From positions 1 to 19,644 of IMG/VR virus record IMGVR_UViG_2648501186_000019: a stretch of 19,644 nt of DNA; one strand, written 5' to 3'. Positions 1,614 through 19,644 of the stretch are shown here, piece by piece. A model generated the notes under the pieces. The model was not told the origin of the DNA, searched no databases, and saw nothing but the letters and a program-made list of their open reading frames with translations. Origin of the DNA: a virus. Its lineage: Duplodnaviria > Heunggongvirae > Uroviricota > Caudoviricetes. A program made the position numbers and the translations under genes. How positions within the stretch are numbered: position 1 is the stretch's first letter; each line of letters starts with the position of its first letter.

Positions 1614-1650
1614 GCCCCTATCGTTATAATACACGGTAGGGGCGTTTTTG
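1614..1650 (+). terminator. rho-independent terminator candidate upstream of the recombinase gene
   Basis: Stem GCCCCTATCG pairs with CGGTAGGGGC (one G-U pair) around a 10-nt loop containing TTATAAT, followed by GTTTTTGTTT. Confidence 0.55.
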
Positions 1651-1662
1651 TTTGGAAATGGT

Positions 1663-3342
1663 ATGAAAACTAAACTGTATTCGTATATTCGCTTCTCTTC
1701 AATGAAGCAAGCGGATGGTAGTTCTTATGAACGCCAAAAGAGAACAGCCGCAGAGATAGCCGCAAAATATGACCTTGAACTGGTTACTTCCTATCAGGAT
1801 TTTGGTGTATCTGCATTCAAAGGGGCTAACAGTAGAACAGGTGCATTATCTCGTTTTCTGGATGAAATTGGTCGATCCGTTCCGGTTGGTAGCTGGCTGG
1901 TTGTGGAAAACTTAGACCGTATCTCTCGCCAATCCATCATTGAAGCACAAGAGCTATTTCTCTCGATTATCCGTAGGGGAATAACTATCGTAACTGGCAT
2001 GGATGGTAAGGTCTATAGCAAGGAATCGGTTAATGCCAATCCTATTGATTTGCTGTTGAGTGTCATGTTGTTTGCGAGAGCTAACGAGGAAAGTCAGACT
2101 AAGCGCAATCGTACTAACTCAAGCGCATTGATTAAGATTAAAGCTCATCAAGAAAATCCACAAAATCCGGCTGTTGCAATCGAGGAAATTGGAAAGAATA
2201 TGTGGTGGACTGATACCACATCTGGTTATGTGCTTCCTCATCCGGTCTTCTTCCCTATTGTTCAGGAGGTTGTGGAATTACGCAGGAATGGACGGTCAAC
2301 CGCCGAGATACTGGATCACCTTAACGCGACATACACACCACCACCAGCCGCAAGTCACAAGAGGCATTCAAACTGGTCACGGGCAATGATTGAAAGGTTG
2401 TTCCATACCCGCGCTTTGATTGGTATCAAGGAAATCTCTGTAGATGGCGTTAAGTATGAGTTAAAGGATTATTATCCTCGTGTGCTAGATGACGCTGAGT
2501 TTTATCACCTTAAGAAAAGCATTGGTGTTAGAGCATGTAACTATGGAGACAAGGAAGAAGTTAAACCTATTCCCTTGCTTAGTGGTGTTGGTCTATTGAA
2601 ATGTGAACATTGCGGTTCCGCTATGGTTAAGGTGAAAGGAACTAACAAACGTCCTAACCAATATCGTTATTCATGCGATGCAATGCGCTCTAGTCGTATT
2701 GCATGTGTGCATACAAACTGGAGTTTTCGAGGTGATCAATTAGAGAAAGCTGTATTGCAATTGCTGGCTGATAAAATCTGGATTGCTGAGGATAAGGCTA
2801 ATCCGGTTCCGGCTTTGAAAGTACAGATTGATGAAATATCACGCAAGATTGATAACCTGATTACCCTTTCTGCTATGACAGGAGCAACGAAGGAGTTAGC
2901 CGACCAGATTACTACCCTCAATAGCGAGCGTGAAACACTCTACAATCAGATTAAGATGGCAGAAGAGGAAATGTATTCTGTGGACTCTCAAGGCTGGGAG
3001 AAGCTCGCAGAATTTGATTTAGAAGATGTTTATAACGAGGATCGCATTAAGGTCCGGTTTAAGATTAAGCAAGCTCTAAAACGGATCGGGTGTAGCAGGA
3101 TTGACAAATACAAAAACTTGTTTGTACTGGAATACATTGATGGTAAGACCCAGAGAGTTGTAATAGAAAATTCAAGAGGACCGAGGAAAGGCCGGATCTT
3201 CGTTGATTTGAAGACCATCAATGATAGGCAGATTCTGGAGAGTAACGGGCTTGTTTTGCATCCATGTTTAGACATGCTGACAGATAAGAACTGGAAACCA
3301 GAAGAGGAAATACCAGGTCCATTACAGGAATTTGGAATTTAA
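1663..3342 (+). CDS. large serine recombinase (serine integrase/resolvase family), 559 aa from ATG 1663
   Basis: N-terminal catalytic motif YSYIRFSSMKQ...SYERQ (Y-x-R-x-S nucleophile region), a large central domain, a Cys-rich zinc-ribbon-like segment (CEHCGS...YSCD...IACVH) and a coiled-coil-like stretch. The track start at 1648 is TTG; ATG 1663 is preferred. Confidence 0.9.
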   Translation: MKTKLYSYIRFSSMKQADGSSYERQKRTAAEIAAKYDLELVTSYQDFGVSAFKGANSRTGALSRFLDEIGRSVPVGSWLVVENLDRISRQSIIEAQELFLSIIRRGITIVTGMDGKVYSKESVNANPIDLLLSVMLFARANEESQTKRNRTNSSALIKIKAHQENPQNPAVAIEEIGKNMWWTDTTSGYVLPHPVFFPIVQEVVELRRNGRSTAEILDHLNATYTPPPAASHKRHSNWSRAMIERLFHTRALIGIKEISVDGVKYELKDYYPRVLDDAEFYHLKKSIGVRACNYGDKEEVKPIPLLSGVGLLKCEHCGSAMVKVKGTNKRPNQYRYSCDAMRSSRIACVHTNWSFRGDQLEKAVLQLLADKIWIAEDKANPVPALKVQIDEISRKIDNLITLSAMTGATKELADQITTLNSERETLYNQIKMAEEEMYSVDSQGWEKLAEFDLEDVYNEDRIKVRFKIKQALKRIGCSRIDKYKNLFVLEYIDGKTQRVVIENSRGPRKGRIFVDLKTINDRQILESNGLVLHPCLDMLTDKNWKPEEEIPGPLQEFGI

Positions 3343-3474: not shown

Positions 3475-3618
3475 TTATCAGAGAAAATTGTCTTACTATT
3501 GCATTCTCTATCTGGATGTGGGTATAGGCGGGATTGAATACGGCAAAACTGAAACATTCCACTACTGCAATAAATCACTAAACAATATAAAGAATATTGC
3601 AAGTGTGGAGTGGAACTA

Positions 3619-5109
3619 ATGCAAGATATTAAAATTCATTTTCAAGATTACAGTTTCGTTAAGGTTGATTGCTCTCCTTCTATCGGAATGGAATTAAGAG
3701 ATTATTTCTCGTTTGAGGTTGAAGGGGCTAGGTTTAGCCCCCGTTACAAGTATTCTGGCTGGGATGGACGAATAAGACTGTTTACGCATGAAAACACCCT
3801 ACCAATTGGACTATTAAAAACGTTGGGTGTCTTCGTTAAAAATATGGGCTATTCAGTCTGGATTGACCCCAGATTGCTTGAGAAGGAAGATGTAACCAAA
3901 GACGCGATTAATGAATGGATTGATTCCTTAGAAGTGTATTCCGGTAGCAATAAAATCAATCCTTATTGGTATCAAAGGGAGGCAGTCTTTCAGGGTATCC
4001 ACAATCGCCGTAGAATGCTGGTTCTTCCTACCAGTGCCGGAAAGTCATTGATTGCTTGTATGCTGTCTCGTTGGTACTTAGAGAACTACACCGGAAAAGT
4101 GTTAATCATTGTTCCGACTACATCGCTAGTGGTTCAAATGAGGGATGATTTCATCGATTATAGGCTATTCCCTTATGAAGCAATTCATACAATGATGAGT
4201 GGTAGCGGGAAACATCCGGGAGACAGGTTAATCACGGTTAGTACATGGCAATCAGCGTGCAAGATGCCTCCTGAATGGTTCAAACAATATGGAATGTTGA
4301 TAGTTGATGAATCGCATAAGGCTAGTGCCAAAAATATTACCAATATCATTAACGGAATGAATCATTGCCAATTTAAGATCGGCATGACTGGTTCCCCTAA
4401 AGAATCAAAATGCCATCTTTTACAGTATGTCGGACTTTTCGGTGATATTTCTAAGATCGTGAGTATTGACCGCCTGATGGAAGAAGGGCAGGTGACAAAA
4501 CTGAAAATTAACTGTCTTTTCCTTCGTTATACCGATGAGGAATGTAGCGCGGTTAAGGGGCGAGAATATGCGGAAGAGATCAAGTATATTACATCTAACC
4601 CACGACGAAATAAGTTTGCTTGCAATTTGGCGCTAAAACTCGCTAAGAAGGGCGAAAACGTATTCCTGATGTTCCGCAATACTAAGCACGGAAAACTTAT
4701 GTATGATGCGTTACAGAAGGTACACGACAAGGTTTATTATATTGACGGTGGAGTTAAGACAGAAGAACGAGACGAGTTCAAAAAATTAGCGGAAGGGGAA
4801 ACAGGGATCATTTGCGTTGCATCCTATGGTGTGTTCTCTACTGGTGTTTCCATCAAGAACTTGCATCATGTTATTTTCGGTCATCCAGTGAAGGAATCAA
4901 CTATCGTTCGTCAGAGTATCGGTCGTGCATTGCGTAAACATGGTTCTAAGGATATTGCAACGGTCTGGGATCTTATAGATCATTTGTGTATATTCGGTCG
5001 TAACGGAAAAGTCAAGCATAAAAATTATGCGGTAAAACATGCACTTGAGAGAATCCGCTATTATTTGACCGACAAGTTCAGCTATGCAACTAAAACAATT
5101 GCTATATAA
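3619..5109 (+). CDS. uvsW: SF2 DNA helicase of the T4 UvsW type (497 aa from ATG 3619)
   Basis: Walker A LPTSAGKS, DExH box LIVDESHKA, motif III-like TGSP, C-terminal helicase motifs (VASYGVFSTGVSIKNLHHV, QSIGRALRKHGSK). The N-terminus MQDIKIHFQDYSFVKVDC and overall pattern track the T4 UvsW sequence as I recall it. RBS GGAG 8 nt upstream of ATG 3619; the track start at 3610 is GTG. Confidence 0.85.
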   Translation: MQDIKIHFQDYSFVKVDCSPSIGMELRDYFSFEVEGARFSPRYKYSGWDGRIRLFTHENTLPIGLLKTLGVFVKNMGYSVWIDPRLLEKEDVTKDAINEWIDSLEVYSGSNKINPYWYQREAVFQGIHNRRRMLVLPTSAGKSLIACMLSRWYLENYTGKVLIIVPTTSLVVQMRDDFIDYRLFPYEAIHTMMSGSGKHPGDRLITVSTWQSACKMPPEWFKQYGMLIVDESHKASAKNITNIINGMNHCQFKIGMTGSPKESKCHLLQYVGLFGDISKIVSIDRLMEEGQVTKLKINCLFLRYTDEECSAVKGREYAEEIKYITSNPRRNKFACNLALKLAKKGENVFLMFRNTKHGKLMYDALQKVHDKVYYIDGGVKTEERDEFKKLAEGETGIICVASYGVFSTGVSIKNLHHVIFGHPVKESTIVRQSIGRALRKHGSKDIATVWDLIDHLCIFGRNGKVKHKNYAVKHALERIRYYLTDKFSYATKTIAI

Positions 5110-5110
5110 C

Positions 5111-5140
5111 AAAAAAAGCGCCCACTAGAGGCGCTTTAAT
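5111..5140. terminator. bidirectional rho-independent terminator between convergent helicase and endolysin genes
   Basis: A-tract, stem AGCGCC (5117-5122), 7-nt loop, GGCGCT (5130-5135), T-rich tail; reads as hairpin plus U-tract on both strands. Confidence 0.6.
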
Positions 5141-5141
5141 T

Positions 5142-5495
5142 TTATCCATGCCAGCGTGATTTTTTCGATCTGGAATCGATATGCGTAAAGGTTTTATATT
5201 TGCCTAAGCCGTATTGAGTAGGATATTTCCCATCAAGATAAGCATGGACAATATCAGGAGAAATTCCTTTCACTGATATGTCGGCCGCACGGCCTCGAAC
5301 ATGATAGCTATTGGTTGCACCGCCTACATTCTTGTTATGAGTCGGACAACGGTTCCCGCTGTTAATAATTACTGGTTTCCCGAAGTGTTCGCGTACATCC
5401 TCAAGAATTACCAGCAGTTCAGCGTCGATAGTATCATAATCACATTTTCCGCATTTACATTTAAATTCCTTGCGAGAAAAATGCTTGCTTAACAT
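5142..5495 (-). CDS. endolysin, zinc peptidase M15 family (L-alanyl-D-glutamate peptidase / D-Ala-D-Ala carboxypeptidase-like), 117 aa
   Basis: H-x6-D zinc motif (SYHVRGRAADI) and downstream His (FTHID), as in Peptidase_M15 endolysins. ATG at 5495 has a strong AGGGGG Shine-Dalgarno sequence; the track start at 5531 is TTG. No signal peptide visible. Confidence 0.8.
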   Translation of the reverse strand: MLSKHFSRKEFKCKCGKCDYDTIDAELLVILEDVREHFGKPVIINSGNRCPTHNKNVGGATNSYHVRGRAADISVKGISPDIVHAYLDGKYPTQYGLGKYKTFTHIDSRSKKSRWHG

Positions 5496-5505
5496 ATTAC
5501 CCCCT

Positions 5506-5853
5506 TTAGATGTATTGCATAAGATACCCAATAAATCTGAGTCCCTTAATGTAATAAGGTGCTGTGCCTATGCATACCGCTCGTGCATCACCAATACAAT
5601 TGAAGTTGTAAGGGTTAACTACATCAATCTCCTGCCCTACACGGAAGCGGTATTTAGGACGTTTAGCGAGTGTCGCAACACAAAACACTAACCCGTTACC
5701 ATCATCGCGGATCATTTGCTTGAATTGTTTATGCTTTACTCTCTTCGCCTCGTAATCAAGTGTCATTGATTCAGGGCTAATGCCATTGATAAAAATACCG
5801 GAAAGCTGGTCGACCGGATAAGTAGGAAATTCAGTGAAAATATTTTTAGCCAT
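5506..5853 (-). CDS. hypothetical protein (115 aa), translationally coupled to the endolysin
   Basis: Strong GGGGGT Shine-Dalgarno sequence before ATG 5853; the stop is 10 nt before the endolysin ATG. No TM segment and no recognised motif; three Cys. Confidence 0.6.
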   Translation of the reverse strand: MAKNIFTEFPTYPVDQLSGIFINGISPESMTLDYEAKRVKHKQFKQMIRDDGNGLVFCVATLAKRPKYRFRVGQEIDVVNPYNFNCIGDARAVCIGTAPYYIKGLRFIGYLMQYI

Positions 5854-5891: not shown

Positions 5892-6497
5892 TTAAACGAA
5901 GTTGATTTTACCCATGAAGTGCTTTTTCATCTTCTTCTGGATATTCTTCTTCATCGTTTTCTCATTATCTTTCCAACTACCCATGATGTTACTACGGTCT
6001 GTTTTCTTCAACACTGCAACAAGTCGCTTCCCTAGCTTTTTCTTGTTCTTCATGTCGGCTTTAACGGATGGATCGAGAAGCAGTATTTTACCAGTCTTAG
6101 ATTTTGTGGTTACATACTTCCCTATTTTCTTACCGTTTCTGAGTTGTGGAATGTTACCAAACTGGTTAGTTCGGTCATCAGTTACAGGAACAAATTTCTC
6201 AATATTATTACCACCTTCAAAGTAATATTTTAAGTATTTTTCCTGATTCTTCATGATGAAAACACTATGGTAAGACGTTTTACCGCTTGAGCGTATCCGG
6301 TTGTATGAATTGACCGCTTTCTGTGTGAACTTGGTCGGTCGATCTATCCTTGAATTGACTTTCTTCTGCAACTTTACCCGCTCATCTATGACCGCTAAAC
6401 CCAAATCCCTATGAAAGCTATTACTAGCTTTCTGTTTCCAACTCTTGATATCTTTTTTTACTTTATCAATATTGGATGTGATTATTGGATTAGCCAT
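5892..6497 (-). CDS. highly basic lysine-rich protein (201 aa), function unknown
   Basis: AGGGGG Shine-Dalgarno sequence; ATG 6497 lies 1 nt after the upstream stop. Very Lys-rich with a poly-basic C-terminus (KKNIQKKMKKHFMGK). Confidence 0.6.
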   Translation of the reverse strand: MANPIITSNIDKVKKDIKSWKQKASNSFHRDLGLAVIDERVKLQKKVNSRIDRPTKFTQKAVNSYNRIRSSGKTSYHSVFIMKNQEKYLKYYFEGGNNIEKFVPVTDDRTNQFGNIPQLRNGKKIGKYVTTKSKTGKILLLDPSVKADMKNKKKLGKRLVAVLKKTDRSNIMGSWKDNEKTMKKNIQKKMKKHFMGKINFV

Positions 6498-6498
6498 G

Positions 6499-6669
6499 TT
6501 AGCCCCCTAATAACGAAAAGACCCCCGCCAGTGTCCTTAGCAATTGTTCATCCACGGTCATAGCCGGGAGTTCAAGCCCAAAGGACGTTAGCAGAGGTCT
6601 AATTGCTACGTTATAAGTGAGGGCGACAATCAAGAGATAACCAAAATATTTCTTAAGTTTATTCTTCAT
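6499..6669 (-). CDS. small membrane protein (56 aa from ATG 6669); holin-like or immunity candidate
   Basis: AAGGGG Shine-Dalgarno sequence 7 nt before ATG 6669. Sequence MKNKLKKYFGYLLIVALTYNVAIRPLL... has a basic N-terminus and one or two hydrophobic helices; no lipobox. Confidence 0.45.
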   Translation of the reverse strand: MKNKLKKYFGYLLIVALTYNVAIRPLLTSFGLELPAMTVDEQLLRTLAGVFSLLGG

Positions 6670-6688: not shown

Positions 6689-6967
6689 TTATTTTTGTCT
6701 GAGTAAATCGATAACTTGGTCAAATTTGGCGTCCATCGCAACCACTTTCTTCTCTATACCGTGAAGGGTTTGTTCCATGCGATAAACTCTCTCGGCGATC
6801 TGGTCATGGTTACTTTGCATTGTTTCAAACTTCTGATTAAACAATGCATCATTGGACTCTAATTTCGACAATCTATTTTCTGTTGCTATTTGATTTCGGT
6901 GAAGTCTCCATAATCCACCACAAATTAAGGCGATAACACCGATACCGCCATATATAATTTCAGTCAT
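6689..6967 (-). CDS. single-pass membrane protein with a coiled-coil domain (92 aa)
   Basis: N-terminal TM segment (IIYGGIGVIALICGGLW) followed by a charged helical region. GGGGG Shine-Dalgarno sequence before ATG 6967. First gene after the terminator downstream of the gpJ-like gene. Confidence 0.6.
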   Translation of the reverse strand: MTEIIYGGIGVIALICGGLWRLHRNQIATENRLSKLESNDALFNQKFETMQSNHDQIAERVYRMEQTLHGIEKKVVAMDAKFDQVIDLLRQK

Positions 6968-7011: not shown

Positions 7012-7054
7012 GATAAAAATAATCCCGCCTAACTCAAAAGAATTAAGCGGGATT
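7012..7054 (-). terminator. rho-independent terminator after the gpJ-like gene (- strand)
   Basis: 8-bp stem AATCCCGC / GCGGGATT (7021-7028 with 7047-7054), followed on the - strand by a U-rich run (AUUUUUAUCU). Confidence 0.6.
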
Positions 7055-10000: not shown

Positions 10001-10856
10001 AGCTGGCGTTCGGATCACATGCACCGTTAGAGTGCAAATTCATCTGGCGAACTTGAGAACGTACTTTCAGGAATGAATCAACGTTAATGTTTTCAATTGG
10101 TACTGATAAACCATATTTTTCATTTGTTAGGTAGTGGAAAATCTGATCCACGCCGTTAGTGCTAGCCTCAATAGCATTGGTTTCAAGGTTACGAATCTTT
10201 AATCCGCAAACGTCTACTGCTACCTGGCTATTTGGCTGGAGAATATCAACACCAGCAGCAAGAGATTTGTCATCACGACGTAACACAATACACATGGTTG
10301 CAATGCCGTTACCCTTGTAAGCATCGGTCCAGTCTGAGCCTAAATGAGTTTTTGCCAGTGACAATGCGGTGTTAGGATTCTTACCCGTGCGGAACTCGAC
10401 TTCTAACACTTTACGGTATTCTTCTTTAATGTTGCCCTTATCGAGAATGCCATCACGGATCGTCATGTTTCGACCAATCAGCACGTTTTTATTATCGATG
10501 AATAGTGCTTTGTAATGGTCAATTTCACCCTCGGCAATTGCGAAGATTTGCACTAACTTATTGTTTTCTTTCTTAGAAATTGCTTTGTAAACACAGATAG
10601 CACCAGTTCGAGTAGTACCAAAAATAACTGGTAATACTGTTTTAGGATCGTTTGATGTTCCTAGTGTCACTGCGTTATCTGGGCTTTGTACCTTCGGTGT
10701 TTTCGGTGCGCCTACAGTGGAAGCAATCAAAGACAATGCACCAGCACCAATACCGATAGCAACAGCCGCTAATGTTGAAATTGCCGCCACGGAAGCAGCA
10801 GCCATCCCAGCCGACGCACCAGCAATAACCGCGCCGACCAATACTTCTACGCCCAT
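7074..10856 (-). CDS. tail tip central fibre / host specificity protein (gpJ-like) with an N-terminal gpI-like domain and a lambda-J-type C-terminal receptor-binding domain (1260 aa)
   Basis: ATG 10856 with a GGGGG Shine-Dalgarno sequence, overlapping the upstream stop. Residues 1-50 are a Gly/Ala-rich hydrophobic segment, followed by APKTPK...VLPVIFG..R.G, reminiscent of the lambda gpI C-terminal half. The middle has FN3-like segments, a duplicated helical segment and 8-residue (A)IxNAKI repeats. The C-terminus (DDHKFDRQIVIP...VIDMPAGKG...VMVTKKATTGITVS) follows the pattern of the lambda J C-terminal domain as I recall it. Confidence 0.9.
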   Translation of the reverse strand: MGVEVLVGAVIAGASAGMAAASVAAISTLAAVAIGIGAGALSLIASTVGAPKTPKVQSPDNAVTLGTSNDPKTVLPVIFGTTRTGAICVYKAISKKENNKLVQIFAIAEGEIDHYKALFIDNKNVLIGRNMTIRDGILDKGNIKEEYRKVLEVEFRTGKNPNTALSLAKTHLGSDWTDAYKGNGIATMCIVLRRDDKSLAAGVDILQPNSQVAVDVCGLKIRNLETNAIEASTNGVDQIFHYLTNEKYGLSVPIENINVDSFLKVRSQVRQMNLHSNGACDPNASFKENLTGLMQTFGGVMFESFGRITLKLDAPDIVKHTFNEDNIMMGKVNLKTGGTNGYFNTINAIYQEPSLDYSEQMLRYPADAENDATIRQDGRIIAKDVEYRFVKDENQIDKLASIERNKSRITQVINFTTTDAFSAEVWDVISVTHDELKLNNSLWRIISIERSIDSGIAGILSITATEYNSQIYTDLDYAAKPDNRPSGLPDSMTVQKPTNFRIKATGETIYGKNVTLTWDAPEDFNRYGFQIDYRVSGSPNWIKLGQTSQQIFSVNALAKDRSYDYRVCAFGIIARSDWVELINQNPTVTYELPTPVIRIKNQGSTPGTFEGNDLIIEWDNQQGLDVEINGETNKFSDLFEAYIIKVTNKAGKSIQYRTRDPESWTYTLDMNQFNGLSRQLTVEVSAKGYNNSESAPARLVAINPQHKPMKGFSARGGFNTAFVSWADDVEHDYAGSIIQYATDNTFSDARAVSTNSVSHTSFDIADGDYYIRGAHYDIFGMDDAVWSEPYFMQMKSTISWDDQDKEALEDLIGLQDRLDETIADAIAQAGANADAKIDAMHKQITTETGQTVQASANTLKSLIATSEQASSTKIDQVKAELKGDIKSEVSASATTLKQAIATSEAASASKIDQVRVEMDGKIAGVNQEADVKIDALKGTINSKYNLAVNADGRVAGIHMSATNDPAQPTRIIFNADKIAVAPQNGSEVCPFGIEGNKVYLDNAMIRNAAIGTAQINDAAITTAKIGNAAINSAKIQDGAITNAKIVNGAIDNAKIGNYIQSSNWNGSTGWHINKNGSATFMNATVKGNITADSGTLNNVTINSSCVIKGMLEATQVKGDFVKVIGRKFPHRDVNVDNGYAGYPQGTVTVRVEDDHKFDRQIVIPAVSFGGLRAREGSNNNTYYDTCRLIVRKNGSELYNRAYGGNTGLYSGVIDMPAGKGAVTLTFEVQSSAINNWTPSTWISDLTVMVTKKATTGITVS
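7692..7859 (-). repeat. imperfect 24-nt (8-codon) tandem repeats inside the gpJ-like gene
   Basis: Protein-level repeats NAAIGTAQI / NDAAITTAKI / GNAAINSAKI / QDGAITNAKI / VNGAIDNAKI and matching DNA periodicity. Confidence 0.5.
8117..8330 (-). repeat. roughly 110-nt imperfect tandem duplication inside the gpJ-like gene (helical shaft segment)
   Basis: DNA blocks at about 8117-8227 and 8228-8330 share TGATCAATCTTA...GCTTGCT..CTGGTAGCAAT. Protein segments TLKSLIATSEQASSTKIDQVKAELKGDIKSEV and TLKQAIATSEAASASKIDQVRVEMDGKIAG are clear paralogues. Confidence 0.45.
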
Positions 10857-12589: not shown

Positions 12590-15109
12590 TTACATTCTAC
12601 GACGCTGGGCGTCTTCTACTGCTTGGGCAACAAGTTTCGGATGGCGTTTAATCGCTTCCATTACCATTGCATCAGAGCTATTAACGTTACCGCTAATTTG
12701 CAAAGGAGCATGTACCTCAATCGGCTGAGAGTTACCAGTGTTACCGGATTTCTGGTTAGCTAAGAAGTCTTTCAGATCGCCGTTAGTACGATCATCAACA
12801 ACTCGTTCCCCTTTCTGTAACAGCCATGTACCCTCACGCGGGATGTTATCAATACCGTCATGCGCCATACCGTCAACAGAGATTGATTTCATCTGCGCAA
12901 CACGAGCGATTGCAGAAGCATAGCTAGCAGCACCCATCGCAACACCCAACGGTCCAGGATACTTAGCCATAGCCTTAGTTGCGGCTTCGTGTGCGTTCAT
13001 CATACCCATTGCGATAGAAACGCCTTTCTGTGCTGCAAATAGTCCCTTAGTAACAGCGTTATTCTCTAAGCCAAATGCTTGTAACGCCTCACCAAATCCA
13101 CCGAACATATCCTGTGTATCTTGCAAGCGCATGTTATTGTATTTTAAGTCAATTTCACGCATTTTCTTTTGATGCGCTTCATTGAGTGCTTGCAGTGCTT
13201 TAAATTGTTCAGCTTGAGGCAGTTTATCAATGTTGGCTTTATGGGTAGCGTAATCAGCATTAGCATTATCAACATCAACGGCTTTCATCTCGTCAATAGT
13301 CTGATCACGTTCACCGAAGGAGTTAGCTAGACCACGAGATTTGATTTCTTGTAGTCCATCGGTCGCACCAGTACGGCCTTTGTAAGCATCTTCAATACGC
13401 TGTTTTTCTGCCAGATAATCCGCTAATTTGATGTTTTTATTCTGGTAGTTTTCTTCCAGATCTTTAAGGCTTTGTTCATAAACCTGTTTAGAAGCAGCCA
13501 ACATTTGCAGGGCTTCCATTGGATTTGCACCTAATACAGATTTACGGAAGTTTTCCGCGTTAGCATTAATTAGCTGGCGTCGTTTCTCTTCGTATTGTTC
13601 TTGCGTGATAATACCCTGTTTAAGAGCGTTATCTAACTTAGCAAGGTTTTCGGTAATCTGACGGTTAGAAGACGCCACAGCAGCTTGTGACGAGCTATAC
13701 AAAGAGATATTGATGGCCTTCAAATCATTGTAGGCTTTTTCTCTTAATTTTTTGGCTTCGTCTGCGGCTTTCTTCGCTGCATCTTTAGCTTTCTTGGTTT
13801 CTGGACAATCTGCGGCTGAATGCGCACCTTGCTTACATACAGGGCAAAGAGATTGAACACGGCGTTTATTCTCTTCTTCCTGTTTCTTTTTCAGTTCATC
13901 GGCTTGTGTTTGCAGTTCAGCAGCTTTGCGTTTGCGTTCTTGTTCTGCTAGATCTTCGAAGCTGGTTGCAGCACCGTTACTAACACCGCTTGCGATGGCT
14001 TCCTCTACCGCATCACCTAATGCTTTAGCACCTTTCTTGATGTTATCGGTAGTCAATGCTGGGATTTCAAAATCAAGAAAATCGGCATCAGCACCAAACC
14101 AGCCAGCAATAGTTTTACCACCCTTGCGGATCGCATTCTGTACTTTAGCGATAATCTCGGCTAGTTTGTTGTACAGATTAATCATTGTTTCCTGTACAGT
14201 TTTAACCGTCTTGATTATCGGGTTAATTGCTGTAAGTAGAGCATCCTTAGCTTTCTGGAATAACGGCGGGAGATTTTCGGTCACAAACTTACTAATAGCT
14301 TTCATACTCAAATAGAAAGTAGTATTAGTAAAATCCTTGTTGAAATAATCATAGATTAAGTTGAATCCTTTCGGGAGGAACGAAAATACATCCGCGAAAG
14401 CACCCATTACCGTTTTACCTAAAGCGGTCAAATTAGAACTTGCGTTTGAATACGCGGTCGCTGTTTCTTCTGAGACATAAGCGGCTTGTTGTTGGAGCTT
14501 AACTTGATGTTCCCAATAGTCGTTTGATTCAGACAAAGCACCGATCATCTTACTGGAATCAGAAGCAATTCGTTCCATACCCGCGATAATTTCAGAATGG
14601 CTTAGTCCTGCGGCTTTAGCTTGGTAATACCACATTTCAGCAGCTTTGCGACCGCCTTCTGGATCATCGGTAAAGGCTGCATAATCCTTGATATCGCCTT
14701 TGATCATTTTAAGCGCGGCTTGAAATTCCCCTGTACCGTCTCGCCATGCTTCCCCTAATTTCTCGGCTGCATCCTTGTTAATATCAAGAACTTTTTCGGC
14801 ATTCAGACCAAAGCCACTATAGACTTTTTCCATCTTCTGAATTTGTTCGATATTAACACCAAATTCTTTCGACATATTGGCATATTCGATAGCCATTTTT
14901 GCGCCACCAGCAGCAAGGGCAGTAAGAGCACCCAAAGCAGCACCAGCAGCCATCCCCAATGGACCCAGCTTACCTAACAATCCACTGATAGAGCCAGTTA
15001 AATTACCGACACCACCGGAGGCAAGACCATCAAGAATACCACTTGCTTTATCTGCGGCAGATTCAAGACCACCAGTAACGCCAGTAATATCAAATCTTAA
15101 TTCTGACAT
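12590..15109 (-). CDS. tail tape measure protein (839 aa)
   Basis: Position directly after the chaperone pair; length comparable to lambda gpH; long helical charged repeats and Gly/Ala-rich hydrophobic segments. Strong AAGAGG Shine-Dalgarno sequence before ATG 15109. Confidence 0.85.
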   Translation of the reverse strand: MSELRFDITGVTGGLESAADKASGILDGLASGGVGNLTGSISGLLGKLGPLGMAAGAALGALTALAAGGAKMAIEYANMSKEFGVNIEQIQKMEKVYSGFGLNAEKVLDINKDAAEKLGEAWRDGTGEFQAALKMIKGDIKDYAAFTDDPEGGRKAAEMWYYQAKAAGLSHSEIIAGMERIASDSSKMIGALSESNDYWEHQVKLQQQAAYVSEETATAYSNASSNLTALGKTVMGAFADVFSFLPKGFNLIYDYFNKDFTNTTFYLSMKAISKFVTENLPPLFQKAKDALLTAINPIIKTVKTVQETMINLYNKLAEIIAKVQNAIRKGGKTIAGWFGADADFLDFEIPALTTDNIKKGAKALGDAVEEAIASGVSNGAATSFEDLAEQERKRKAAELQTQADELKKKQEEENKRRVQSLCPVCKQGAHSAADCPETKKAKDAAKKAADEAKKLREKAYNDLKAINISLYSSSQAAVASSNRQITENLAKLDNALKQGIITQEQYEEKRRQLINANAENFRKSVLGANPMEALQMLAASKQVYEQSLKDLEENYQNKNIKLADYLAEKQRIEDAYKGRTGATDGLQEIKSRGLANSFGERDQTIDEMKAVDVDNANADYATHKANIDKLPQAEQFKALQALNEAHQKKMREIDLKYNNMRLQDTQDMFGGFGEALQAFGLENNAVTKGLFAAQKGVSIAMGMMNAHEAATKAMAKYPGPLGVAMGAASYASAIARVAQMKSISVDGMAHDGIDNIPREGTWLLQKGERVVDDRTNGDLKDFLANQKSGNTGNSQPIEVHAPLQISGNVNSSDAMVMEAIKRHPKLVAQAVEDAQRRRM

Positions 15110-15880: not shown

Positions 15881-15897
15881 ATTACGATATATTTATG
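15881..15897 (-). promoter_or_regulatory. CATAAATA box plus TATCGTAAT; second copy of the 15-nt motif seen at 945-959
   Basis: The - strand reads CATAAATATATCGTAATCATT; the box ends 31 nt upstream of ATG 15858 (30 nt at the + strand copy). It overlaps the stop codon of the 168-aa gene. Confidence 0.35.
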
Positions 15898-16399
15898 TGA
15901 TCTTTAAACTCTGCTTAGTGCCAGTCTTCTTAATGTTGGTAAGGAAAGCAGCCGGAGGATTGCTTAACCAATAGTAATGAAAACCACTTTGCATACTGTT
16001 ATAAGGAACAGTGACAGTAGCACCACCCAAATTAACGGTTATATTCCCCGCTCTACCGTTCTGGAGATATACAGCCATAGTAGGAGTACCGCCATTGAAT
16101 TGACCAACGATAACGCCAATCAGACGCCCTACGCCCACGTTTTCGGGGTTCTCCATAGATCCTTTACCGCGCATGTCAGTTACTGGATAGTTTGAAGCAG
16201 TTACACCCCAGTTATTACCCAATGAAGTAGACCACGATGCAGTAGCAACAACCGTATCCATACCACGACCACACATAGCACTCATGTTAGCTGGGCGACT
16301 AACCTTTAATGCGTTCATTGCTGCGGTCATCCATCGTTGACCAGTTACAGAAACAGCAGATGACCCGACCCAGCCGGGCTTATTAACGACATTTGCCAT
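15893..16399 (-). CDS. hypothetical tail-module protein (168 aa), Gly/Ser/Thr/Asn-rich
   Basis: GGAG Shine-Dalgarno sequence 9 nt before ATG 16399, just downstream of the terminator hairpin. Composition suggests a beta-rich structural protein; could alternatively be the tube subunit. Confidence 0.55.
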   Translation of the reverse strand: MANVVNKPGWVGSSAVSVTGQRWMTAAMNALKVSRPANMSAMCGRGMDTVVATASWSTSLGNNWGVTASNYPVTDMRGKGSMENPENVGVGRLIGVIVGQFNGGTPTMAVYLQNGRAGNITVNLGGATVTVPYNSMQSGFHYYWLSNPPAAFLTNIKKTGTKQSLKIT

Positions 16400-17106: not shown

Positions 17107-19644
17107 TTATTTAGTTGCTTTCAGTTCGGCTAATTCAGCTTTAGTTTCGGCAAGTTCTTTAGCCATAGCATCAAACTTAGCGGTCATTTCCTGCATTGCT
17201 TTGATGATTAAAGCATTGACAGCAGAGTTAGAAATAGTCTTGATTGCTTCTGGATGTTCTGGATCTTCGGTGGATTGAATACCTACTGCTTCCGGCAATA
17301 CTTTTTCCAGATCCTGAGCAATAATACCTACTTCGCGTTTAATTACTGTGTCATCAGAAAGAGATTTAACTTTATCGTAGGTGTAGACTTTCAGGGAGTT
17401 TACTTTCTCTAATGCGCCGTCCTGTAATTCTTCCTTGTTAATTTTCAAACGGGAGTCGGAGCGAATGTAAACATCGTTAAAGCTACCGTTACGACCTGCG
17501 GTAAAGTCACCAGAGGCGTTAAAGTCAAAAGTTGCATCGTGTACGTGCATACGCACCATAGCATTACCGATAGTACCGCTAGGAACATGTACACCCATTG
17601 CTGCGATATGATATTTACCTTGATGGGTTGCTTTCCATACGTTATGAGCGGAATCGGTTGATTGTTGACAGTCGACCTGAATACCAGAAGCACGATCACG
17701 CCAGCTAGCCCAACTACCACCAGCAACGCTACCACGAATAAGACCATTACCGCCACCGGATACAGTGCCCGTTTCAAGGTGAATCATCTTACCGCCGAAT
17801 TTCCAGACTTCGGTTTGTTTCTCACCACGGAAGCGAATAACACCAGCGTCATCGCAATACATCAAGCCCAACTCTAAACCGTTTGGATCTCTAAACCAGA
17901 TGTGCTTATTGCCAGCGCGTTTAAACGAAATATCAGCACCAGTTGTTGTGATATTGCTAGCAACGTTTAGACTACCCGCCATAGAGAACAGAATAGGTCC
18001 AGTGCCACCCTGAGTACGTTCAGTATACCAGTGATAACTTGTAGCATCCTTACATTCAAAAACCTGTTTGCGTTGCTCGTTACCCCATGTGTGTAAGGTA
18101 AATTGAGACTGCGACCCCCGATTAGCATCAAATGCAATTTCACCAGATTCTACACGTACAAAGCCTTTAAAACGTGCAGTAATATTTCCGGTTTCATCAT
18201 TGCGTTCAGTAGAGAAATGTATACCTGTTGGGTCTTCTATTTGAAGAATGTTGTGTCGTCCACTGGCACTATCACCCAAATGGTTTATTTTCATGAAACC
18301 GCTAGCACCCTGACGCCCACTAGAAAAATGAAGAAATCCTTTTTCTACATAAACATCACCAGCAAAACGAGCAGCACGACTTGCACGTTCTAAGACTAAT
18401 GCACCTTCGTTACCATCACCACCCAAAGTAACATTACCGCTACCAAGATGGTAAATGAACGGACGATAGCCGTTCCAACTACCAAATTTATCATTTTCGG
18501 CAGTAGACAGAAGATATACGTTTTGACCATCATTACGCCAGAATGCACCATAGTTACCGTAAATCATACGGAATGCATCACTGTTAGCAGCTACATATTG
18601 ACCATTGGTGTATACAATTTTGGTAGCACCTGTGCTTAAAGATACTTGACCACTTGCTTCTAATTTAACAAAGTTTTTACCTTCGTCACTATACCATTGA
18701 AAATCGTTAGTATCTGTAGAACCAAAACCAAACCAGCCTTGACGTTTATTAGCCCCGTTTCGCTGATCCATATATTCAAAATAGTTACTACGACCAGTAG
18801 GACGCCACATACGAATCGCGTTATTGCCTTGCAGATGAAGTCTATCGACAAATAAACCATCACTACCAACAATTTTTAATACTTCTTTTTGGTCGGTGGA
18901 ACCAGTAGCCAAACGATACACATCACCTTGAACAGTTTCATGCCATATTGTTTCCGCCGCACGACTGCGGAATTTACGCATATATTTTTTATTGTTGTCT
19001 GGTACGTTATTAAGGCTCACAATATCATAGGTTGCTTGTGAGTTATTATCAAACATCAACGTTCCGGCTTTGTTTTCGGTGTTGAACATCGTAATAACAC
19101 GAGCATCGGTAACACCAACAGAAGGTTTAACGAGAGTTAATTCAGGAACATCATGTACTGTCAGAGTAACGCCATCAGTTTTACCGTATTCGACAATAAC
19201 GTTATCGGTGTAACGACCGTAGTTAACGTAGATATCGTAGTTATCACCGGAAGTATTAACCGCAAATACTTGATGAGTATTTTTAGAATTTCGACGATAC
19301 GCCGCAATACTAACGCCTTTCGGGTTATTGTTACCGGAACGGATGACAATTTCTACAAAGTCAACCTGATCATAAGAGTTAACGTTATAACCATTACCAC
19401 CGAAGATACGAAGCATTACCATTCGACCATTCTGTGGGATCGTAGCGGTTGCGATCTTGAAGTATCCACGAGTAGCATCACCAGAAGGAACGGTCATTCT
19501 AACGTTCTTGATGAACATCTTATCAACTTCGGCTTTGGTGTATGCACCAATCTCGCCAGGAGTCGGCTTATCACCTTCGTGATACATCTTATAGCTAAAG
19601 TTCTTCTGTCCTTCTCTATCAAAACCATAGGTTTCAACACGAGA
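17107..19644 (-). CDS. tail or neck fibre protein with a C-terminal intramolecular chaperone (peptidase S74-like) domain; 5'-partial, open to the window edge
   Basis: The frame stays open to 19644 (SRVETYGFDREGQKNFSYK precedes the first Met). The C-terminus (...YIRSDSRLKINKEELQDGALEKVNSLKVYTYDK...VGIIAQDLEKVLPEAV...AELKATK) matches the autoproteolytic chaperone domain of T5 pb1-type L-shaped fibres and endosialidases. The upstream body is Gly/Asn/Thr-rich, beta-type. Confidence 0.85.
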   Translation of the reverse strand, partial: SRVETYGFDREGQKNFSYKMYHEGDKPTPGEIGAYTKAEVDKMFIKNVRMTVPSGDATRGYFKIATATIPQNGRMVMLRIFGGNGYNVNSYDQVDFVEIVIRSGNNNPKGVSIAAYRRNSKNTHQVFAVNTSGDNYDIYVNYGRYTDNVIVEYGKTDGVTLTVHDVPELTLVKPSVGVTDARVITMFNTENKAGTLMFDNNSQATYDIVSLNNVPDNNKKYMRKFRSRAAETIWHETVQGDVYRLATGSTDQKEVLKIVGSDGLFVDRLHLQGNNAIRMWRPTGRSNYFEYMDQRNGANKRQGWFGFGSTDTNDFQWYSDEGKNFVKLEASGQVSLSTGATKIVYTNGQYVAANSDAFRMIYGNYGAFWRNDGQNVYLLSTAENDKFGSWNGYRPFIYHLGSGNVTLGGDGNEGALVLERASRAARFAGDVYVEKGFLHFSSGRQGASGFMKINHLGDSASGRHNILQIEDPTGIHFSTERNDETGNITARFKGFVRVESGEIAFDANRGSQSQFTLHTWGNEQRKQVFECKDATSYHWYTERTQGGTGPILFSMAGSLNVASNITTTGADISFKRAGNKHIWFRDPNGLELGLMYCDDAGVIRFRGEKQTEVWKFGGKMIHLETGTVSGGGNGLIRGSVAGGSWASWRDRASGIQVDCQQSTDSAHNVWKATHQGKYHIAAMGVHVPSGTIGNAMVRMHVHDATFDFNASGDFTAGRNGSFNDVYIRSDSRLKINKEELQDGALEKVNSLKVYTYDKVKSLSDDTVIKREVGIIAQDLEKVLPEAVGIQSTEDPEHPEAIKTISNSAVNALIIKAMQEMTAKFDAMAKELAETKAELAELKATK

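Follow-up and report, generated by a model that had tools for sequence, protein, structure and literature searches.

What is the function of a very lysine-rich phage protein whose gene lies between two genes for small membrane proteins and an endolysin gene? The window analyzed here (the whole stretch of 19,644 nucleotides, IMG/VR virus record IMGVR_UViG_2648501186_000019) belongs to a temperate siphophage that is integrated in Enterobacteriaceae, and carries such a gene on the minus strand (positions 5892–6497). Its 201-aa product is hypothetical in the NCBI annotation. The initial annotation, made from the sequence of the window, recognized no family signature and proposed either a nucleic-acid-binding or injected internal protein, or a membrane-interacting lysis regulator; it was to be given up if a match to an established phage family emerged. 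Such a family was found through profile comparisons and the predicted fold, namely the superfamily of lambda gpZ and other tail completion proteins (TCP, also Neck1). We consider it probable that the protein is the TCP of this prophage, and that it belongs, as a strongly diverged member, to the lambda gpZ superfamily.

As read from the window, the open reading frame (ORF) starts with ATG and encodes 201 aa. The upstream ORF ends with a TAA at positions 6501–6499, which is separated by one base (6498) from the ATG (6497–6495), and the sequence contains a Shine-Dalgarno-like GGGGG run 5 nt upstream of the ATG (6503–6507, minus strand). The gene is therefore tightly packed against that of the small membrane protein described in the initial annotation, which we recovered as a 56-aa product with a single hydrophobic segment (KD17 1.63); the translational coupling of the two genes, asserted at the time, is plausible. 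Homologs with 90%, 60%, 49%, and 31% identity are found in E. coli, Shigella, Salmonella, and Pantoea prophages. Comparison with the 60% allele (pN 0.24, pS 0.70) yields a dN/dS of ~0.14, demonstrating that the gene is under purifying selection, and together with the range of homologs this establishes the gene as real. The source gene call (P0005, window 5892–6254) is apparently a 120-aa version starting at M82, which leaves out the conserved N-terminal helix. As residues 1–81 are conserved across all homologs, and the PGAP call in a 98%-identical prophage (E. coli RMDEC332, locus L087) is likewise 201 aa, the 201-aa reading is the correct one. An ORF on the opposite strand (5902–6225, plus) is explained by the many Lys codons (AAA/AAG) of the coding strand.

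The protein contains 39 lysines (19.4%), 10 arginines and 16 acidic residues (D + E), resulting in a net charge of +33 and a pI of 10.4; its K + R content is 24%, compared to 10–16% in the other proteins of the window. Both basic patches quoted in the initial annotation are present, KNKKKLGKRLVAVLKK at residues 150–165 and KKNIQKKMKKHF at residues 184–195. The description as a poly-lysine protein is apt in so far as the protein is Lys-rich, but overstated, as runs of lysine are never longer than three residues. In agreement with the earlier reading, we found no transmembrane (TM) segment (highest 19-residue Kyte-Doolittle mean 0.07). Extreme basicity is a trait of the whole gpZ-like family and not an oddity of this protein, with a net charge of +37 for lambda gpZ and a median of +29 for the extended family. 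The protein uses Lys where most relatives have a mix of Lys and Arg and where lambda gpZ is Arg-rich, a preference that is consistent with the low [G + C] content of the gene (36.8%).

A megablast search of the region against the phage collection returned nothing, and tblastn against this collection identified only DCP80 and unannotated Ralstonia phages. When used alone, the protein produced only noise against Pfam, with Minor_tail_Z (PF06763) not reached even at E ≤ 10, and it is not a member of this family in the strict sense of a single sequence scoring above the gathering cut-off of 23.9 bits. It matched phrog_1924 ("minor tail protein") weakly (E 0.0028) and in the N-terminal half only. 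All ten sequences of the close family (the protein and nine homologs) match phrog_1924, the best at 2.3e-7; the consensus of this close family has no match to Minor_tail_Z. Among 1.8 billion representative proteins, a profile of the ten sequences identified 332 clusters at E ≤ 0.001, including 32 at E ≤ 1e-10, with values down to 1e-44; nearly all of these proteins are 180–230 aa long. The majority consensus of 148 of the 332 clusters, here referred to as the family consensus, matches Minor_tail_Z with 31.9 bits (E 1.5e-7) across profile positions 9–186 of 190. It also matches phrog_1924 (3.5e-62), phrog_27 ("tail completion or Neck1 protein"; 3.3e-10, full length) and phrog_5 (1.9e-5). Individually, 8 of 141 members scanned against Pfam match Minor_tail_Z at E ≤ 0.001, and no other Pfam family was matched.

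Lambda gpZ itself matches phrog_27 at 3e-69 and phrog_1924 at 1.9e-4, and the close-family profile scores 42 bits on a protein with a precomputed PF06763 annotation (P0193). Using hhalign with the single lambda gpZ sequence, nothing was obtained for the close family, and a probability of 65% for the broad family, restricted to the N-terminal helix. A profile search of PDB sequences with the family alignment identified nothing. As a search of viral contigs for sequences from which to build a diverse gpZ profile returned only copies of the lambda protein (99–100% identity), it is the Pfam and PHROG models that connect the family to gpZ. At the profile level, the family is homologous to the recognized TCP families (PHROG 1924, 27, and 5; Neck1 of Lopes et al. 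2014), and the protein is a remote member of the gpZ/TCP superfamily on the PHROG 1924 branch, even though it fails the Pfam model itself.

Structural modeling is in line with this assignment. With an alignment of 10 sequences the AF2 prediction was unusable (pLDDT 50), and with an alignment of 141 sequences a pLDDT of 85.8 and a pTM of 0.76 were reached. The model comprises a 41-residue helix (residues 10–50), a beta domain with short helices (residues 62–168) and a 26-residue helix (residues 175–200). The TCP fold is characterized by two long N- and C-terminal helices that lie side by side and a small beta-sheet, to which the lambda type adds an apical beta domain. The model matches the published TCP fold with a lambda-type beta insertion, as judged from its topology and from named BFVD matches. 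Foldseek against BFVD gave a top match with an E of 6.9e-8 and a TM of 0.67, and lower matches were named tail component, tail protein, HK97 gp10 family, and neck protein. Foldseek against the PDB gave chance matches only and did not recover 80alpha gp51.

Lambda gpZ resembles the protein in length (192 versus 201 aa), in K + R content (24% in both) and in net charge (+37 versus +33), and has long N- and C-terminal helices flanking a beta domain, as predicted for the protein. In addition, both phages have a GpA-type cos terminase. There is no pairwise sequence similarity between the two proteins, which are linked through PHROG 1924 and through the extended-family consensus that passes the Pfam threshold. 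The lambda Z gene is located between FII and U, whereas the gene studied here belongs to a lysis-type cassette that follows the tail tip gene, and lambda has no counterpart of the conserved ~115-aa partner encoded downstream.

The profile closest to the protein is that of PHROG 1924, a branch of ~200-aa proteins from Ralstonia phages and from prophages of Burkholderiales (Paraburkholderia, Massilia) and Yersinia. The motifs DRPTxFT, QxxYL, GG, and NxxGNI are common to both, and PHROG 1924 members are also encoded outside the neck module. Typical members have 20–25% identity to the protein and are encoded beside a small terminase gene, not a lysis cassette, and the match of the clade studied here is limited to the N-terminal ~120 profile residues.

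The short TCPs, 80alpha gp51, SPP1 gp16.1, and HK97 gp10, also have two long helices and a hairpin or sheet, and, like our protein, are presumed to connect the end of the DNA with the tape measure and to control how the DNA is routed (PMC11661146, PMC11099176). They are smaller (~110–150 aa), are without the apical beta domain, and show no sequence or PDB Foldseek match to the protein, although the BFVD matches include HK97 gp10 family names. Moreover, 80alpha and SPP1 are headful-packaging phages, whereas all terminases visible in the family loci are of the lambda GpA (cos) type. Another protein called TCP/Neck1, p143, differs from other TCPs in predicted structure and length, such that the authors question its membership, and suggests that not all proteins labeled as TCPs are at the neck (PMC11784142). 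In contrast to p143, the protein studied here has a standard and confident TCP-type model. It also conforms to the general description of TCPs as strongly basic proteins of ~110–200 aa encoded by one gene per long-tailed phage, and a single family member was found in each of the 10 phage loci. Homology, predicted fold, charge, and single copy together point to a TCP role.

We then considered the genomic context. In minus-strand order, the window encodes a T4 gp37-like fibre, the major tail protein, and a gp38-like adhesin, followed by the tail chaperones and the tape measure protein (encoded at 12590–15109); next come the distal tail protein, two further tail proteins and a tail tip protein of 1260 aa. 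A terminator-like hairpin with a 15-bp stem and a T run (7021–7054, minus strand) lies between the tail tip gene and the cassette. The first cassette gene (6689–6967) encodes a protein of 92 aa that combines a TM segment at its N-terminus with a coiled coil (KD17 2.02; matches to phrog_12015 and the DUF7201 coiled coil), a putative holin or lysis accessory. It is followed by the gene for the putative holin-like 56-aa single-TM protein (6499–6669), for which the longest ORF extends to 6741 from a TTG and PGAP gives 56 aa in the RMDEC332 prophage. The 56-aa protein matches phrog_2024 weakly, and its 57-aa Pantoea counterpart matches the same profile at 5.8e-5; in E. coli, Salmonella, and Pantoea, a gene of this type precedes that of the TCP homolog. 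The TCP gene is followed by the genes of the conserved 115-aa partner (5506–5853), which follows the homologs across enterobacterial clades, and of a Peptidase M15 endolysin (5142–5531; phrog_894 1e-45, Peptidase_M15_3 5e-28), for which PGAP gives a shorter 117-aa form. A bidirectional terminator-like hairpin (5115–5137, both strands) lies between the endolysin gene and the convergent gene for a UvsW-like helicase; the plus strand of the window further encodes a large serine recombinase. The two strong terminator-like hairpins separate the five-gene block (92-aa TM protein, 56-aa TM protein, TCP, partner, endolysin) from the tail operon on one side and the helicase gene on the other. The gap at 7021–6967 showed no sigma-70-like promoter, and Rfam and tRNA scans of the window gave no matches.

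At window positions 3610–5109 (+), 15893–16399 (−), 17107–19587 (−), and 1648–3342 (+), the large serine recombinase integrase of a temperate siphophage is combined with genes of T4 type: these encode the UvsW helicase and a gp37-like long tail fibre tip with a gp38-like adhesin, located between the tube and chaperone genes. In relatives of the phage (locus L004, 11837–12244), T4-type UvsY and endonuclease VII (EndoVII) are also present.

The complete prophage of E. coli RMDEC332 shows what lies upstream of the region in the window: a GpA-type terminase, a gpW-like protein, a portal and a protease-capsid fusion, as well as proteins of 96, 140, and 277 aa, the last of which is tube-like. No TCP-like match was found among the capsid-to-tube genes of this full prophage, including those of the 96-aa and 140-aa proteins. 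From their size and position, our guess is that these two are the head closure protein and the terminator; BLASTP of both against a Phage_attach protein and its neighbour in locus L089 gave nothing. The same prophage encodes two paralogous tube-like proteins, of 277 aa (L087 5638–6471) and 157 aa (10094–10567), both matching phrog_158, with a 1162-aa tail fibre gene separating their genes.

The gene is thus not found in the neck module, which runs from head closure to tail terminator, but follows the tail tip gene in a holin-endolysin block. None of the loci examined holds the gene in the canonical neck slot, and members of the PHROG 1924 branch are displaced in this way throughout. Within the clade of the protein, the gene is found after that of the tail tip, either among lysis genes or next to them, and on Yersinia-type contigs the homolog also comes after a lysozyme gene. 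In Pantoea, it has the tail tip gene on one side and the genes for the tail chaperones and tape measure on the other, and no endolysin gene is adjacent. Three distant homologs (L089 8001–8594, L092 10001–10621, and L097 9001–9600) are encoded directly upstream of a small terminase and a GpA-type large terminase, beside the presumed cos site.

In Pantoea sp. MBLJ3 (L003 5302–13883), the order is tail tip, a 105-aa protein, EndoVII, 57-aa TM protein, TCP, partner, chaperones G/T and a 768-aa tape-measure-like protein, a rearranged tail module in which the tape measure block follows the tip gene. Escherichia phage DCP80 (PQ671644.1; L001 11623–36099; 141 kb) is filed as a T4-like Gaprivervirus, and contains siphophage genes (for the tail tip, EndoVII, the TCP homolog, the partner and the endolysin) in a block that directly adjoins the T4-type early genes motA and ndd; the record is either a chimeric assembly or an unusual recombinant.

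The position of the gene raises the question whether the protein is a gpZ-fold paralog that does not have the classical neck/TCP role, and instead has another role at the DNA end or cos (in packaging or ejection) or is located elsewhere in the tail, for instance at the tip. This would fit with the absence of the gene from the canonical slot, with distant members upstream of terminases and with the clade of the protein after the tail tip gene. The TCP assigned to T5 is found at the tail tip (PMC11784142), and one Paraburkholderia myophage locus has, besides the family member, an unassigned 186-aa gene in the canonical gpZ slot. The 186-aa protein, however, showed no similarity to family members, of which only one occurs per phage, and the prophage studied here encodes no other detectable TCP. 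Gene position is weak evidence of the position of a protein, and TCPs are reported to be essential and widespread in long-tailed phages (PMC11099176). We therefore regard a paralog of this kind as unlikely, though a modified role or location of the displaced branch is a rival worth keeping.

A second alternative is that the protein is a generic basic DNA- or RNA-binding protein, or an ejected internal protein, unrelated to TCPs, with a likeness to gpZ that is only compositional. The protein is very basic, bias of this kind can inflate weak HMM scores, and the direct match to phrog_1924 has an E of only 0.0028. The conserved motifs of the family, however, are non-basic (DRPTxFT, QxxYL, GG, P, and NxxGN), and lambda gpZ ranks first against 2000 composition-matched shuffles with the family HMMs. 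As the family consensus in addition aligns over its full length with Minor_tail_Z above the Pfam threshold, and the confident model has TCP topology, we consider a compositional artifact very unlikely. The nucleic-acid-binding or injected protein of the initial annotation was nevertheless close in spirit, as 80alpha gp51 caps the DNA and is thought to leave with it (PMC11661146).

The lysis regulator, or membrane-interacting accessory of the holin-endolysin cassette, that was also proposed initially derives from the place of the gene, between two small TM proteins and the M15 endolysin, within five genes that terminator-like hairpins delimit as a block, and, in Yersinia-type homologs, again after a lysozyme gene; it deserves hardly any credence, as the protein has neither a TM nor an amphipathic signature (KD19 maximum 0.07), its homology and fold are those of a virion protein family, the Pantoea homolog has no neighbouring endolysin, and distant members adjoin terminase genes, away from lysis genes.

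For the reading that we prefer, that of a TCP of the gpZ superfamily, a mechanism can be proposed from better-studied phages. In 80alpha and SaPI1 virions, a single gp51 is present inside the neck, where a loop covers the final base pair of the packaged DNA, the N-termini of the three tape measure chains are joined by the hairpin and the helices of gp51, and the positive face is directed to the DNA; gp51 is believed to depart together with the tape measure protein as well as the DNA, and is the sole TCP that has been seen in a virion (PMC11661146). SPP1 without gp16.1 ejects its DNA normally in vitro, but delivers it outside the cell (PMC11099176). Lambda without gpZ forms particles that look normal and are poorly infectious (PMC11784142, PMC11661146); gpZ itself, a small basic protein presumed to lie within the tail from the DNA end to the tape measure, has never been seen in maps, and its location and role are unsettled (PMC12617516). 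By analogy with the structure of 80alpha gp51 and the genetics of SPP1 gp16.1 and lambda gpZ, we infer a role in the tail lumen.

According to this proposal, one or a few copies of the protein would be added to the head-proximal end of the finished tail. Its two long terminal helices may bundle with the N-terminal helices of the tape measure trimer inside the tube, and the Lys-rich beta domain at the apex would face the portal and cap the cos-cut end of the packaged DNA after head-tail joining. Loops around residues 121–137 and 146–158 of the predicted beta domain are candidates for holding the DNA. The protein would hold DNA and tape measure until binding of the receptor triggers ejection, and then exit with both, thereby routing the DNA into the cell instead of letting it spill outside.

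The protein may have a partner. The gene directly downstream of that of the TCP always encodes a ~100–124-aa protein of one kind, as seen for E. coli, Salmonella, Pantoea, DCP80, and Yersinia-type contigs (hhalign probability 97%; window 5506–5853 on the minus strand, L004 10604–10957, L003 10561–10878, L001 12536–12835, and L090 10614–10988). The 115-aa protein encoded in the window gave no match to PHROGs, Pfam, or the PDB, the latter including a profile search of PDB sequences with the partner alignment. The idea of a gpU-like tail terminator, making up a displaced Z-U pair, was examined by sequence comparison, which showed no similarity to lambda gpU.

The TCP gene is also exchanged between prophages. 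In E. coli ETEC1738 (L094 1100–1783), the body of the ORF has no DNA similarity to the window (5907–6492), with an upstream flank (window 7597–6493) that is 98.6% identical and a downstream flank (5906–4900) that is 90.4% identical. The ETEC1738 allele encodes 227 aa with ~36% protein identity to our protein (a value taken from the P0014-type 227-aa variant). This is a precise replacement of a single TCP gene by another allele. At least 55 complete E. coli genomes carry the block, and most of these show the same ~65% coverage as the ETEC1738 swap.

It is conceivable, though in our view improbable, that the PHROG 1924 branch, including the protein studied here, is a specialized cos-end-capping module that has moved out of the neck block. 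Such a module may work with the ~115-aa partner and, in the clade of the protein, also with the 56-aa membrane protein. Its site or timing may differ from that of other TCPs, for example by being loaded last, by being located at the tail tip, or by acting at the inner membrane during DNA entry. If this were true, the single-gene allele swaps of the E. coli prophages would be a sign of selection acting on a protein that is ejected and encounters the host.

In summary, the protein is probably a standard component of the virion whose gene has an unusual location, and its assignment is a routine remote-homology annotation of a protein that was previously unannotated; what was a hypothetical protein in the NCBI annotation now has a name and a testable role. 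The gpZ-type TCP family is extended to a Lys-rich enterobacterial branch that is missed by current Pfam models. The branch as a whole is encoded outside the neck module, and all terminases visible in the loci examined are of the lambda cos type. TCPs are among the least understood of the conserved tail proteins, and an inducible E. coli prophage in which the TCP gene is displaced, has a conserved partner, and is naturally swapped between alleles may lend itself to genetic studies of these proteins.
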